Assembly: GCA_965204535.1 (NCBI GenBank)
Contig: CBDBEV010000001.1
Span: 96,001-160,000, forward strand
Direction of reading: 5' to 3'
Length of the DNA stretch: 64,000 nt
From: a bacterium
Lineage (GTDB): Bacteria > UBA8248
Positions 48,176-53,090 of the stretch are shown here, in pieces. A program made the translations under genes and the position numbers. Below the pieces are notes generated by a model. It worked only from the letters and a program-made list of their open reading frames with translations, ran no database searches and was not told where the DNA came from. Every line of letters begins with the position of its first letter. Position 1 is the first letter of the stretch.

Positions 48176-48517
48176 GTGGAACATATTAAAAGACATGTTT
48201 TCGTCTGCATCAATCAACGCCCGCCCACTCATCCGATGGGCTGTTGTCAGAGCAAGGGCAGTATCGAAGTCGCGCAAGCGATAACAGAGGCAATAGGCTC
48301 GAATGATGAACTCGCTGCGGATACAGCCATGGCCGGCGCCACTTGCCTGGGTCCGTGCACGATGGGTCCCACCCTGGTCGTTTACCCGGAGGGGGTCTGG
48401 TACACGGGCGTAACGGTGGAAGACGTTCCTGAACTTATCGAGGAGCATCTGAAAAACGGACGCCCCGTCGAGCGGCTGCGGTTGAGGCTCCCCGGAAATG
48501 TCGGCGACGACGACTAG
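48176..48517 (+). CDS. Thioredoxin-like [2Fe-2S] ferredoxin
   Basis: HVFVC..C...CLGPC..GP..VVYPEGVWY motif. Confidence 0.92.
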   Translation: MEHIKRHVFVCINQRPPTHPMGCCQSKGSIEVAQAITEAIGSNDELAADTAMAGATCLGPCTMGPTLVVYPEGVWYTGVTVEDVPELIEEHLKNGRPVERLRLRLPGNVGDDD

Positions 48518-48538: not shown

Positions 48539-48811
48539 ATGAGCCGAGCGCTGGTGATGCACCCGAAAGACAACGTGGCCACGGTGCTCGAGGACATCTC
48601 CCCCGAGCAGAGTGTAGAAATCGAAGGCGATGATAAGACACTTACGCTTTCCGCAACGCAAGCGATTCCTTTCGGACACAAAATCGCGCTGCGCAAGATC
48701 CGCTCAAACGCAAAAGTGCTCAAATACGGCGAGGTCATCGGCACTGCCACACAAGAGATATCCGCCGGCAGTCACGTTCACGTCCATAACATCAAGAGCA
48801 CCAGGGGTTAG
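48539..48811 (+). CDS. UxaA/SuyA-like small subunit (SAF domain)
   Basis: DNVAT, IPFGHKIAL, KYGEVIG and HVHVHN motifs. Confidence 0.88.
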   Translation: MSRALVMHPKDNVATVLEDISPEQSVEIEGDDKTLTLSATQAIPFGHKIALRKIRSNAKVLKYGEVIGTATQEISAGSHVHVHNIKSTRG

Positions 48812-48813
48812 GT

Positions 48814-49992
48814 TTGGCCCGTAAAAGAGGCACTCCTACCTTCCGGGGCTACAGGAGACCTGAAGGCCCTCCGGGCGGCCGGAATCATCTTGCCATCGTC
48901 AGCGGAATGGACAATTCCAACCCCATCGTCCGCAGAATCGGCGGGCTTGTGCGAGACGCCACGCCCGTCAACACCTCGTTCGGACGCGCCCTGATGGGTG
49001 AGGACGAGGCGCAGCATTGGCGGGTCATGGGGCACACCGCCGCCCACCCGAACGTAGGGGCCGCCATTATCGTAAGCCTCGAGCCAAAAAGCGCCAACGC
49101 CATCGCGGAAGTAGCCGCGAGAACATCTCCGTGGATGCCCATAGAAGCCGTGAACATTCAGGAGATCGGGGGCACGCTCAGCACCACTTCGCACGTCGTG
49201 GAACTCGCCACGAAACTCTCCGCCCATCTTGCATCCGCCAAGCGCGCCCGCTGTGAACTGGACGAACTCACCATCGGGGCCGAATGCGGCGGTTCGGATA
49301 CGACCAGCGGCGTCATCTCGAACCCTGTGACGGGCATGGTCGCCGACAGGGTCGTGGAAGCGGGAGGTTCGGTCATTTTTTCCGAAACCCTGGAAATCGT
49401 AGGTGCCGAGCATCTTCTCGCCCGCCGGGCCGCGGACAGAAAAACAGCGCGGAGAATCATCGATTCCGCAAGGCGCGCCGTCGATTATGCCGAAAGCATC
49501 GGTGTCGATTTCATCGGTTCGAATCCAGCACCGGACAACATTCGGGGTGGTCTATCGTCCATTGAGGAAAAAAGCCTGGGAGCCGTCAAGAAAGCGGGGA
49601 GCCATCCCATCGTCGAGGTCATCGGCGTGGGTGAACGCCCGAAGAAAAAAGGCACCATCTTCGCTGACGCTCCCTGCGCGGGCGTGGAGAACATATCCTC
49701 CCTGGCGGCCAGCGGGGCGCAGGCGATTATCTTCTCGACCGGAATCGGCAATCCCATCGGGCATCCTGTCTCTCCTACCATCAAGGTGACGGGCAATCCC
49801 CGAACCGCGCGGACGATGTCCGAGAACATCGACGTGGATATCAGCGGCGTCATGGAGGGGACGATGCGCATAGATGAGGCGAGGGATATGCTCGAAAAAG
49901 AACTCATCGACGTGATGAGTGGAAAACTCACGGCATCGGAACTTCTGGGAGAAACCGAACTTACGGTCAGCCGGGCTGCGCTGAGCCTCTAA
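48814..49992 (+). CDS. UxaA/GarD/SuyB family dehydratase or lyase large subunit
   Basis: FRGYRR..RNH, HPNVG, ECGGSD, GGLSSIEEKSLG and FSTG.GNP motifs. Confidence 0.88.
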   Translation: MARKRGTPTFRGYRRPEGPPGGRNHLAIVSGMDNSNPIVRRIGGLVRDATPVNTSFGRALMGEDEAQHWRVMGHTAAHPNVGAAIIVSLEPKSANAIAEVAARTSPWMPIEAVNIQEIGGTLSTTSHVVELATKLSAHLASAKRARCELDELTIGAECGGSDTTSGVISNPVTGMVADRVVEAGGSVIFSETLEIVGAEHLLARRAADRKTARRIIDSARRAVDYAESIGVDFIGSNPAPDNIRGGLSSIEEKSLGAVKKAGSHPIVEVIGVGERPKKKGTIFADAPCAGVENISSLAASGAQAIIFSTGIGNPIGHPVSPTIKVTGNPRTARTMSENIDVDISGVMEGTMRIDEARDMLEKELIDVMSGKLTASELLGETELTVSRAALSL

Positions 49993-50033: not shown

Positions 50034-50546
50034 CTAGAAGCCCATTCCGACGATTAGCCGATTCCAGGTGTTGATGAGCGCGATGGCGCCCAGAAGCTCC
50101 ACTATCTGCGCTTCCGAATAGTGCGTCTTCAGCGCTTCGAAAGTTTCATCCGAGACGCTCACCCCCTGCGTGCTTTCCTCACAAAGGCGAAGCGCCGCCT
50201 TTTCTTTCTCATCGAAGACATCGCTTGCAGAACCCTCTTGCGCGGCTTTCGTCTTCTCATCCCCCACCTTGTGCATCTTCGCCATGTTGGAGTGCATGTT
50301 GGCGCAAAAATGGCATCCGTTTAGAACCGACGCGCGAATGTTCAAGATTTCCTTGAATCCGACGTCAATCTCCCCAGGGCCATCCGCCACCGTGGTCAGG
50401 CTCAGCAAAGAGCGCAAAAAATCCGGTTTGTGGGCCAGTGCCTTCACCGGCGGAATCACGACGCCGAACTGTTTTTGTAAGTTCTCCATGATGCGTTTCG
50501 CGGATGCTTCCGCCTGCTCGGGTTCTAACAAGGAAATTCGTGGCAT
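50034..50546 (-). CDS. Carboxymuconolactone decarboxylase/AhpD-like peroxidase-related protein
   Basis: KEIL..RASVLNGCHFC..MH motif and NTWNR. ATG 50546 follows GGAG. Confidence 0.88.
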   Translation of the reverse strand: MPRISLLEPEQAEASAKRIMENLQKQFGVVIPPVKALAHKPDFLRSLLSLTTVADGPGEIDVGFKEILNIRASVLNGCHFCANMHSNMAKMHKVGDEKTKAAQEGSASDVFDEKEKAALRLCEESTQGVSVSDETFEALKTHYSEAQIVELLGAIALINTWNRLIVGMGF

Positions 50547-50780
50547 TCCATGCTCCTTTGATAGATTCGTCTGGATGTATGCCGACACGTTATAGAAAGT
50601 GTCATTTCACCGATATTTACGCCACACCGAGGCCGCGGGTCAATGAATGCGTCGAAATCACCTCTCTGCCTGCAAAAAGGCGTATGAACGCAAGCACAAA
50701 ACATCTACTTTTGCTAAACTATGCTCCATAATTTCTGTCTCCCGCTGCATACGCTCTAAACAAAGGGATGAAAACTGCCC

Positions 50781-51608
50781 ATGAGCAAACAAGTTTCCTT
50801 AAAAGATGCCGCATCACTCATCGAAAATGGAGACGCGATCAGTCCCGGCGGAACCTTATTGCACAGAACACCCGCCGCCCTCATCCGCGAAATTGCGCGC
50901 GCGGGTCTTCGGGACCTCACGCTCATCAAGCCGTCTCCCGGTTACGACGCCGATCTCCTTTGCGCCGCAGGCGCCGTGAAGAAAATCATCAGCGGCATTG
51001 TTACATTCGAGGCGGAATTCGGATTGGCGCCTCACTATCGAAAGGCGATAGAGAAAGGAATGGCCGGCCTCACCGAGCATGCCTGAGCCAGCGTGCTTGC
51101 TGGGCTGCGGGCCGCAGCCTACGGCGTTCCCTTCCAGCCCATTCGCGGATTCGATGGGAGTGATATCCCCGAACAAAGCGGCATCTTCACGATTGAAGAC
51201 CCCTACACGAATGAGGAACTCTATGCGATTCCCGCCCTCAAGCCGGACTGGGCGTTGATCCACGTCCAAAAATCAGACCCTCAGGGAAACGCGCAAATCC
51301 TGGGCAATCAGCAATTCGACGTTGAAATGACGCGCGCGGCGCAAAAAGGGGTCATTCTCACGACCGAGAAAATCGTAGACTCCGAAGAAATCGCAGCGGA
51401 ACCGGAGAGAACCACCATCCCGAGTTTTCTCGTCAAAGCAGTCGTGGAAACGCCGGGCGGCGCGTCTCCTTGTAGCTGCCATCCATTTTACGGGGTCGAC
51501 AAAACAGAAATGAGGCGCTACATGACCTTGACCCAAAGCCAGGACGGGCTTCGGGAATATCTGGCGAGTACCGACGAAACACACACACAAGACGCGGTGA
51601 CGAAATAA
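50781..51608 (+). CDS. Class I CoA-transferase alpha subunit (GctA/IpdA-like), probable selenoprotein (Sec102 at TGA 51084-51086), 275 aa
   Basis: ORFs 50781..51086 and 51093..51608 share a frame and are the two halves of one CoA_trans domain: ...LTEHA-U-ASVLAGLRAAAYGVPF...PALKPDWALIHVQKSD..GN. Confidence 0.82.
51101..51121 (+). promoter_or_regulatory. Putative bacterial SECIS element
   Basis: UGGGCUGCG[GGC]CGCAGCCUA forms a 9-bp stem with a G-initiated loop 22-23 nt after the UGA. Confidence 0.65.
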
Positions 51609-51610
51609 CG

Positions 51611-52363
51611 ATGGGCAACCGCCTGGCCTCGTTGCCCGAGTATGTGATCCGCGCTGGAAACCAGATGGCCGTAACGCTCTCGCGCCTCATCGAAGACGGC
51701 GAGAATGTGTTTCACGGGGTCAACTCCCCGCTTCCCATGGTCGCGATCTTCTTGGCCAAGAAACGACATGCCCCCAACTGCTCGCTCATAGAAGTCGCGG
51801 GCTCGGTGGACCCCAAACCACGCTTCATGCCGAACAGCACGGCCGACCCTGAACTCTGCCATGGTGCGGCTTCTATGTTCTACAACCCGGATATGTATGA
51901 TCTCTTTGCACGCGGCGGGGTGGACTTCGCTTTTCTGGGTGCTGCCCAACTCGACAAGCAGGGCCGAGCCAACTTGAGCTATATAGGCGACCCGTTCCAC
52001 CCGAAAGTAAGGCTCCCAGGCGGCGGGGGAGGCGCCGTTATCATGCCGCAGGTGAAACGAACCGTCATATGGCGAACAGTTCACGACAAACGATTTCTCG
52101 TACCTAGGGTCGATTTCTCGACGCAGTCGGGCAATCTGAGCCACGTCGTGACACCCATCGCCTTGTTCGAGAAAAAACCCGCCGGGCTCGAGATCGCCAG
52201 CGTTCACCCTGGCCACTCGATGGATGAAGTGGTCGAGAAAACAGGCTTCGACCTGGAGCGCCCGAGCATTGTGGCGCAAACTCCTGCGCCAAGCGCCGAA
52301 GAACTGAGCGCCCTGGAGGAGCTCGATCCGGATGGTGTGCGATTTTCGGAATTCCGTGTATAA
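51611..52363 (+). CDS. Class I CoA-transferase beta subunit (GctB-like)
   Basis: HAPN, FLGAAQLDKQGRANLS, RLPGGGGG and VDF...SVHPG. Starts 2 nt after the alpha subunit stop. Confidence 0.88.
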   Translation: MGNRLASLPEYVIRAGNQMAVTLSRLIEDGENVFHGVNSPLPMVAIFLAKKRHAPNCSLIEVAGSVDPKPRFMPNSTADPELCHGAASMFYNPDMYDLFARGGVDFAFLGAAQLDKQGRANLSYIGDPFHPKVRLPGGGGGAVIMPQVKRTVIWRTVHDKRFLVPRVDFSTQSGNLSHVVTPIALFEKKPAGLEIASVHPGHSMDEVVEKTGFDLERPSIVAQTPAPSAEELSALEELDPDGVRFSEFRV

Positions 52364-52448: not shown

Positions 52449-53090
52449 ATGAGCAACGAATTGTTAAATCGCTTGGGAAGCTATTCGACCTGTCAGGCGG
52501 CGGACGCTTTTGACAAACTGAAAATCAGGGGCCACATGCCCGACATCATCCTGTTATCGCCCGACCCGGAATACCGGATGGTGGGCGAAGCCCACACCGT
52601 TCGAATGGTACCCGCCGGTGGCGGCCCCCTGCCCAAGCGCGAGGTGCACCACATCGACGCGGCGCCCGAGGGGAGCATCGTTGTCATCAGCATCCCGCCC
52701 GGTGTCACGACAGCCAACTGGGGCGGGATGATGAGTACGCGGGCGAAGGTGATGAACCTCGGAGGAGTCGTTCTTGACGGCAGGGCCAGAGATATCGAGG
52801 AACACCGCCAGATGGGGTTTCCCGTGTTTGCCAGAGGAGTGTCTGTTCACGGCAGCGGCGGATATACGGTCCCCATAAGCGTTGGAGAGCCGATCAATTG
52901 CGGGGGCGTCGCGGTGAGGCAGGGAGACGTCATTCTGGGAGACGTCAACGGCGTGGTCGTCATCCCCAGTGAAAGACTCGAGGAAGTCATCGACAAGATG
53001 GATGAACTGGCGGAAATCGAAGAAAAAATTACCGCGGAACTGGAAAAAGGCGTGAGCATCGGCGAAACATTCGCCAAGTATCGAGGCTAG
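52449..53090 (+). CDS. RraA-like / HMG-CHA aldolase family protein
   Basis: STCQAADA, ANWGGMM, DGRARD and GDVILGDVNGVVVIP motifs. Confidence 0.88.
   Translation: MSNELLNRLGSYSTCQAADAFDKLKIRGHMPDIILLSPDPEYRMVGEAHTVRMVPAGGGPLPKREVHHIDAAPEGSIVVISIPPGVTTANWGGMMSTRAKVMNLGGVVLDGRARDIEEHRQMGFPVFARGVSVHGSGGYTVPISVGEPINCGGVAVRQGDVILGDVNGVVVIPSERLEEVIDKMDELAEIEEKITAELEKGVSIGETFAKYRG

Follow-up and report, generated by a model that had tools for sequence, protein, structure and literature searches.

A two-subunit protein of the class I CoA-transferase fold with a predicted selenocysteine in its alpha subunit and valine at the catalytic-glutamate column of its beta subunit

The window analysed here is a stretch of 64,000 nucleotides of bacterial DNA (contig CBDBEV010000001.1 of assembly GCA_965204535.1, positions 96,001 to 160,000). 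It contains two adjacent genes for the alpha and beta subunits of a protein with the class I coenzyme A (CoA)-transferase fold, and the beta gene starts three bases past the alpha stop codon. The alpha gene has one in-frame TGA, which is followed by a hairpin resembling a selenocysteine insertion sequence (SECIS). The features of the locus and its surroundings are given in Table 1.

Table 1. Positions in the window of the alpha and beta genes, their sites of interest and the neighbouring genes.
Feature	Position	Strand	Description
Thioredoxin-like [2Fe-2S] ferredoxin-like gene	48176-48517	+	Pfam; upstream of alpha
Split UxaA-type dehydratase	SAF 48539-48811; GD_AH 48814-49992	+	Pfam
AhpD/CMD-family protein with CxxC, divergent from alpha	50034..50588	-	Pfam CMD and NCBIfam ahpD_dom above cut-off
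Alpha subunit gene, class I CoA-transferase fold	50781..51608	+	275 codons, single in-frame TGA
TGA, almost certainly a selenocysteine codon, residue 102	51084..51086	+	TGA/Cys column conservation; selenocysteine machinery
SECIS-like hairpin GGGCUGCG, loop GGC, CGCAGCCU	51102..51120	+	Read from sequence
Beta subunit gene	51611..52363	+	250 codons; Pfam PF01144 E 7e-19, above gathering score
Beta Glu61-Val62	51791..51796	+	Glu61 51791-51793, Val62 51794-51796; context ...HAPNCSLIEVAGSVDP...
Beta GGGGGA loop, residues 137-142	52019..52036	+	Conservation in beta chains
RraA-like aldolase/decarboxylase family gene	52449..53090	+	Pfam E 9e-33; directly 3' of beta

The alpha subunit was translated with the TGA as selenocysteine (Sec, U). 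It comprised 275 residues, and the sole U was residue 102 in the context ...LTEHAUASVLAGLRAAAYG.... The E-value against the Pfam family CoA_trans (PF01144) was 5e-22, which was above the gathering score. The closest matches in the Protein Data Bank (PDB) by phmmer were GctA (1POI), AibA (5MZW) and IpdA (6CON, 6CO6 and 6COJ), with E-values from 1e-31 to 1e-33. The AlphaFold model of alpha had a predicted local distance difference test score (pLDDT) of 89, and Foldseek gave template modelling (TM) scores of 0.85-0.89 to 5MZW, 6CON and 1POI. Residue 102 was the first residue of helix 102-114 in this model and followed strand 96-99. Both subunits matched the CoA_trans domain and the alpha model also matched the fold, which places the pair in the class I CoA-transferase superfamily. 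No NCBIfam model was reached at its cut-off by alpha, beta or the Comamonas homologues.

The codon at column 102 was compared across 84 alpha genes (80 loci from named genome records). The 51 distinct genes with a stop at this column all had TGA, and neither TAA nor TAG was ever found; the remaining 33 genes had a Cys codon (TGC or TGT). An in-frame UGA opposite Cys is the pattern of a bacterial selenoprotein. Cys102 was invariant among 15 diverse homologues, and it is typically at catalytic Cys sites that Cys and Sec replace each other. Matches with exactly one TGA and the frame open on both sides numbered 30 and came from 29 of the 61 related genomes; their identity to the window protein was 64-100%. 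The genome carried all of the Sec machinery above cut-off, namely, selB (389 bits), selA (573 bits), selD (331 bits) and tRNA-Sec (75.9 bits). Moreover, selA was found in 3/3 tested non-Nitrospinota genomes bearing the Sec form. The selD match (L011, G000:C2:846402-847364) contained one in-frame TGA of its own, so SelD in the genome of the window is probably a selenoprotein as well, judged from this codon. Public gene calls cut alpha into one N-terminal piece of 101 amino acids (aa) ending in ...TEHA and several C-terminal pieces of 154-171 aa beginning just past the column, as would be expected if the TGA were a true stop and the locus were a pseudogene or gave split products of 101 and 171 aa. 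This explanation is extremely improbable, because the stop was never TAA or TAG in 51 genes, both halves were kept in frame down to 64% identity, homologues had Cys at the column, the Sec machinery was complete, and the downstream hairpin was under synonymous constraint (see below). Hence, on the basis of the exclusive TGA, the Cys homologues, the machinery and the constrained hairpin, the TGA is almost certainly a Sec codon.

The relatives of the window belonged to Nitrospinota (Nitrospinaceae), with a few metagenome-assembled genomes (MAGs) labelled Tectomicrobia. Three paralogous alpha/beta pairs occurred in genomes of this family. The Sec type had 64-100% identity to the window alpha (alpha TEHA[U], beta IE[V]AGS), the Cys type had 45-52% identity (alpha EHA[C], beta LN[I]PGG), and the third type, with the canonical Glu, had about 36% identity (alpha WS[H], beta LF[E]GG). 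The genome of the window itself held a canonical-looking transferase pair with alpha His and beta Glu (L058, G000:C2:1211351-1212133) and a Cys-type pair adjoining a PfkB kinase gene (L057, G000:C2:682880-683671). The wider Cys-type clade included Comamonas, Delftia, Achromobacter, Bordetella, Halomonas, Vicinamibacterales, Actinomycetota and Bacillota MAGs, and most relatives would, according to their sequences, use a thiol where the window enzyme has a selenol. A second Sec lineage with the motif LEEHA[U]MTLVAGLR comprised 19 loci from Betaproteobacteria and Burkholderiales MAGs, and one more Sec gene was found in L100. In a maximum-likelihood tree built by a quick search from 98 alpha chains, Sec appeared at three positions, i.e., Nitrospinota (34 rows, support 99), the betaproteobacterial lineage (19 rows, support 96) and L100 alone. 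The well-supported branches forced at least two Cys/Sec changes, and Sec is placed by the tree in at least two separate clades, Nitrospinota and Betaproteobacteria. The alpha genes of four genomes labelled 'uncultured Streptomycetaceae' (L112, L115, L117 and L129) fell inside the Burkholderiales Sec clade, and this position suggests mislabelled bins or gene transfer.

A bacterial SECIS is a stem-loop shortly downstream of the UGA with a G in its apical loop. The hairpin in the window had this form, with a 5' arm beginning 16 nucleotides (nt) past the UGA and the loop GGC. Synonymous alternatives were counted at codons G108-Y114. The numbers were 0, 0, 0, 3, 2, 0 and 1 of 34 distinct Nitrospinota Sec genes and 0, 0, 0, 0, 0, 2 and 1 of 19 betaproteobacterial Sec genes, whereas those for the first Cys clade were 5, 7, 10, 8, 6, 5 and 6 of 22 and those for the second were 9, 10, 11, 6, 6, 3 and 3 of 17. 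Most of the flanking conserved codons in the Nitrospinota Sec genes had 4-21 synonymous alternatives of 34. The hairpin is frozen at synonymous sites in the Sec genes only and not in the Cys genes. The variants that were seen (G-C to G-U and U-A to U-G) retained the pairing. The betaproteobacterial Sec clade had other synonymous codons and formed a different hairpin, GGCUG-CGUG-CAGCC, in the same place. A lower stem extension (nt 16-18 paired with 40-42) was dropped, as it was not kept across relatives. An Rfam scan of 50700-51700 at E <=10 returned a chance match only and no SECIS family. Bacterial selenoprotein genes with an intragenic SECIS include fdhF and grdA/B. The alpha gene resembles them in its UGA opposite Cys, its in-frame hairpin just downstream and the presence of selABCD in the genome, whereas it differs in that its hairpin matches no Rfam family.

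Residue 102 aligned without gaps (phmmer against the PDB) to a column that is Glu in IpdA of R. jostii (6CO6) and Ala in 6COJ, for which Foldseek gives the title 'IpdAB E105A COCHEA-COA complex'. The same column is Gly in AibA (5MZW) and Gln in GctA (1POI). The sequence-only reading had proposed Sec at residue 102 of alpha and had put it on the catalytic-Glu column of IpdA. The first proposal agreed with the TGA/Cys column, the Sec machinery and the hairpin constraint in Sec genes, and the second with the gap-free alignment to Glu105, the residue changed in 6COJ. At the 50% cluster level, the 150 best representatives had E (63), C (28), G (16), N (13), H (6) and other residues (24) at column 102. 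Residue 102 is probably catalytic.

The beta Glu of class I CoA-transferases forms an acyl-anhydride and a glutamyl-CoA thioester during catalysis. The beta subunit was closest in the PDB to AibB (E 4e-34) and then to GctB (4e-23). Val62 aligned to the only column that varies among the AibB entries 5MZW/5N00/5N01/5N02/5N03 (C/A/N/S/V), i.e., AibB Cys56, and a Gct-like beta from the genome of a relative (L062) reads ...IV[E]SG at this column. AibB Cys56 stands in for the catalytic Glu of glutaconate CoA-transferases according to an excerpt of PMC7756340. In an excerpt of PMC5380842, the beta Glu of class I CoA-transferases is given as Glu54 of glutaconate CoA-transferase (GCT), IpdB has Gly57 in its place, and IpdAB is reported to show no CoA-transferase activity. 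The window pair is predicted not to transfer CoA because its beta subunit has Val at the catalytic-Glu position, and it is very likely not a classical CoA-transferase. The beta chain nevertheless contained PGGGGGA at residues 136-142, in line with the glycine-rich GXGG(A/F) motif, and its GGGGGA loop is presumably the class I CoA-transferase oxyanion loop for the thioester. K132, V133, L135, G137, G138 and G140 were invariant in nine diverse beta chains.

Each alpha was paired with the next beta of its locus in two overlapping sets, the relatives set (40 loci) and the genome-contig set (80 loci). The alpha-beta pairs of the relatives set were U-V (26), U-I (1), C-I (8), H-E (3) and Q-E (1), and four alphas had no beta in the locus. 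Those of the genome-contig set were U-V (46), U-I (2), C-V (23) and C-I (6), with seven alphas lacking a beta. Alpha U or C was accompanied by beta V or I in 35/35 pairs of the first set and 77/77 of the second, so that beta Glu occurred in 0/112 alpha Cys/Sec pairs from these overlapping sets, and the alpha H/Q paralogues retained beta Glu (4/4). Two further proposals of the sequence-only reading were therefore upheld: Val62 lies on the canonical catalytic-Glu column, with Glu61 one residue earlier, as the alignment to AibB Cys56 indicates, and alpha Cys/Sec co-varies with the loss of the beta Glu, since no pair combined alpha Cys/Sec with a beta Glu.

An ordinary CoA-transferase acting through beta Glu61, shifted by one residue, with Sec102 incidental, would be consistent with the retained GGGGGA loop and with the invariance of Glu61 in the Nitrospinota Sec clade (27/27 and 29/29 pairs). 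However, position 61 was Asn in 19/19 betaproteobacterial Sec pairs and 36/37 Cys-type pairs, and C/U102 was invariant. Glu61 is hence not the catalyst of the family, because Glu occurs there only in the Nitrospinota Sec clade and Asn in the other Cys/Sec clades. Furthermore, the loci of relatives already hold class III CoA-transferases and ligases for activation, and a one-residue shift in a strand would turn the side chain the other way. The shifted-glutamate explanation is very improbable.

The 150 representatives at the 50% cluster level included 13 natural alpha-beta fusions, single chains of 542-598 aa (P0137, P0142, P0147, P0171, P0176, P0193, P0203, P0224, P0236, P0255, P0259, P0264 and P0269, of which P0224 and P0264 are of the Cys type). 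Beta Glu was found solely with alpha Asn (2/2), alpha Glu (5) with beta G, S or A, and alpha Cys (2/2) with beta A or L. The fusions would be convenient for structure prediction of the active site. A caveat to the swap came from a soil-metagenome clade (L145-L185) with alpha EEWT[E] and beta ...LS[T]PESG. Its sequences suggest that this clade may keep the ESG Glu of beta two residues downstream and thus have Glu on both chains. Given this possible ESG, alpha Glu cannot always be equated with a lost beta Glu.

Three known systems on the same fold were compared with the window pair. IpdAB, the COCHEA-CoA ring-opening hydrolase of steroid catabolism (6CO6, 6CO9, 6COJ and 6CON), is likewise a two-subunit protein (alpha TM 0.87, E 1e-31) with a functional alpha residue at exactly the U102 column. 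Its beta also lacks the catalytic Glu, with Gly57 in IpdB (excerpt of PMC5380842) and Val62 in the window. However, the alpha residue is Glu105 in IpdA and Sec or Cys in the window family, and the window beta aligned to IpdB over the C-terminal half only (E 1e-5). Moreover, the window locus was not in a steroid ring C/D cluster; no steroid-catabolism genes were nearby, and the neighbours were AhpD-like, RraA-like, ferredoxin-like and UxaA-like. AibA/AibB, the 3-methylglutaconyl-CoA decarboxylase of Myxococcus xanthus (5MZW-5N03), gave the best beta match and a top alpha match. It has the same fold but is no transferase, and another residue takes the place of its beta Glu. AibB has Cys56 in beta and AibA has Gly at column 102, whereas the window pair has Val62 in beta and Sec in alpha. 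AibB C56V stays active according to an excerpt of PMC7756340, whereas C/U102 is invariant in the window family. GctAB (1POI) and the true class I CoA-transferases share the fold, subunit order, Pfam family and glycine-rich beta loop with the window pair. They differ in that Glu54 of GctB (excerpt of PMC5380842) is Val in the window and that GctA has Gln at column 102; a separate beta-Glu paralogue, L058, is kept in the window's own genome.

The gene neighbourhood was evaluated in 40 Nitrospinota Sec rows, some of which were one contig fetched twice. The AhpD-like gene was located 160-320 nt upstream of alpha in 32/40 rows, and the RraA-like gene was kept ~1.67 kb downstream of the alpha start in 30/40. 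The conserved set consisted of the divergent AhpD/CMD gene, alpha, beta and the RraA-like gene. The window protein and each of its 32 homologous neighbours had CxxC (CHFC in the window) as the AhpD-like motif and not CxxU, and the window gene also matched the NCBIfam model 'YciW-related (seleno)protein' below cut-off. The ferredoxin-like gene was often near alpha, other genera included. The UxaA-like dehydratase, whose SAF subunit has 90 aa and whose GD_AH subunit has 392 aa, was rejected as part of the unit, being adjacent only in the genus of the window and near relatives; its two-subunit layout resembles that of the sulfolactate sulfo-lyase SuyAB. A Nitrospinota subclade (L088:3922-12710; L048, L051, L052, L090 and L091) had the order RidA-like, alpha (Sec), beta, alpha (Cys) and CoA_binding_2, with hydantoinase/oxoprolinase A and B genes adjoining on the other strand. 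The second, Cys-type alpha of this subclade had no beta of its own in the locus.

A different setting was seen among the more distant relatives. Of 22 Cys-type loci from Proteobacteria and Acidobacteria, 13 had a class III CoA-transferase and an enoyl-CoA hydratase upstream and 16 had an acyl-CoA ligase directly downstream. The cluster of the culturable Cys-type hosts Comamonas thiooxydans and Delftia acidovorans comprises TctC, class III CoA-transferase, hydratase, alpha/beta and ligase genes. The betaproteobacterial Sec-type loci contained YjgF-like genes (14/19), a CitE/HpcH-like lyase (9/19) and an acyl-CoA dehydrogenase (7/19), as well as class III CoA-transferase, adenylosuccinate-lyase-family and Asp/Glu-racemase-family genes. 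None of these proteobacterial and acidobacterial neighbours reached an NCBIfam equivalog cut-off. The acyl-CoA enzyme genes around the relatives suggest that the pair processes an acyl-CoA and does not act as a CoA-transferase. The ligase, hydratase and alpha/beta pattern resembles FadD3, EchA20 and IpdAB, a pathway described in an excerpt of PMC6678751.

The Nitrospinota neighbours are relevant to a redox function, in which Sec102 would form a selenenyl-sulfide with the CoA thiol, a substrate sulfur or a partner Cys and be re-reduced by the AhpD-like CxxC and ferredoxin-like proteins while either a reduction or a thiol exchange takes place on a molecule bound to CoA. The frequent divergent CxxC gene and the thioredoxin-like ferredoxin-like gene near alpha in several genera are consistent with this function, and the accessible text of a 2026 review deems selenoproteins critical for antioxidant defence (PMC13188914). 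However, the proteobacterial Cys and Sec loci contain none of these redox neighbours and encode acyl-CoA enzymes instead. No clade-specific invariant Cys lies next to residue 102, and C233 is common to GctA and AibA. A redox role of Sec102 is accordingly regarded as quite unlikely.

The preferred reading is that of a two-subunit enzyme that is predicted not to transfer CoA and may act on an acyl-CoA through a catalytic selenol nucleophile, with a probability of roughly 0.45. The acyl-CoA, which would be made by other enzymes of the cluster, would bind in the alpha/beta cleft. Sec102, at the N-terminus of its helix in the model, would then attack either the beta-keto carbonyl of the substrate, in a thiolase-like or retro-Claisen manner, or an activated double bond. 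A selenoester or seleno-adduct would be formed, and this intermediate would be resolved by water or CoA. The assignment of residue 102 as the nucleophile on the acyl-CoA is tentative, with the odds somewhat against it. A broader proposal, which is doubtful, is that of a non-redox selenoenzyme whose Sec, as a nucleophile, would carry the acyl group or attack carbon (selenoester or seleno-hemiketal) in thioester or C-C bond chemistry on the CoA-transferase scaffold. In this proposal, alpha Cys/Sec would have taken over from beta Glu as the catalytic centre, and selenium would have been recruited on at least two occasions, by Nitrospinota of marine origin and by Betaproteobacteria of groundwater and soil.

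Residue 102 could instead be a general acid or base without a covalent intermediate in a hydratase, decarboxylase or isomerase of acyl-CoA. It would then serve either as a base, the role proposed for IpdA Glu105, or as an acid, as has been proposed for AibB Cys56. The shared column with IpdA Glu105 and the predominance of Glu over Cys among the representatives (63 vs 28) would fit this role, and AibB Cys56 has been computed as a general acid (excerpt of PMC7756340). However, the low pKa of a selenol makes it ill suited to donating protons at neutral pH, and the recruitment of Sec at least twice fits a nucleophilic or redox role better. In addition, Sec is not known to act purely as an acid or base in any selenoprotein. 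The acid/base role is considered unlikely.

Several observations weigh against a selenol nucleophile acting on acyl-CoA. Known selenoproteins are mostly redox enzymes. In Nitrospinota, the conserved neighbours encode the CxxC AhpD-like and ferredoxin-like proteins, not acyl-CoA enzymes, and the acyl-CoA context comes from relatives that are just 45-50% identical. That residue 102 lies near the thioester is deduced from homology alone, and the catalytic role of IpdA Glu105, reportedly described by Crowe et al. in 2018, is taken from a PDB title. His100 was not universal, being N, Q, G or D in some Cys homologues, and a fixed His-Cys dyad is unsupported because of this variation. Folding energy alone did not separate the Sec hairpin (-14.45 kcal/mol; z-score -0.57 for 86 nt) from GC-rich Cys genes encoding the same peptide AGLRAAAYG (-13.5 to -14.4 kcal/mol), and the synonymous-site count was therefore used as the SECIS test.

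The available text of the 2026 review, which covers over 110 selenoprotein families of prokaryotes, contained no 'PF01144', 'glutaconate' or '3-oxoacid', and its mentions of CoA were unrelated. The main text of deep-Sep 2025 contained neither 'CoA' nor 'transferase'. A full-text literature search, with the hits judged by title and abstract, returned no account of a selenoprotein of the CoA-transferase family. The pair would add a selenoprotein family that gene callers now cut in two. The family is widespread, and Cys is the second commonest residue at column 102 (28/150 representatives at the 50% cluster level). The family would be a second route, besides IpdAB, by which the catalytic residue of the CoA-transferase fold has moved from beta to alpha. 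If a selenol nucleophile is indeed used for acyl or C-C chemistry, this would be a rare non-redox use of selenium, and catalysis by a thiol and by a selenol could then be compared directly in the natural Cys and Sec versions of the enzyme.

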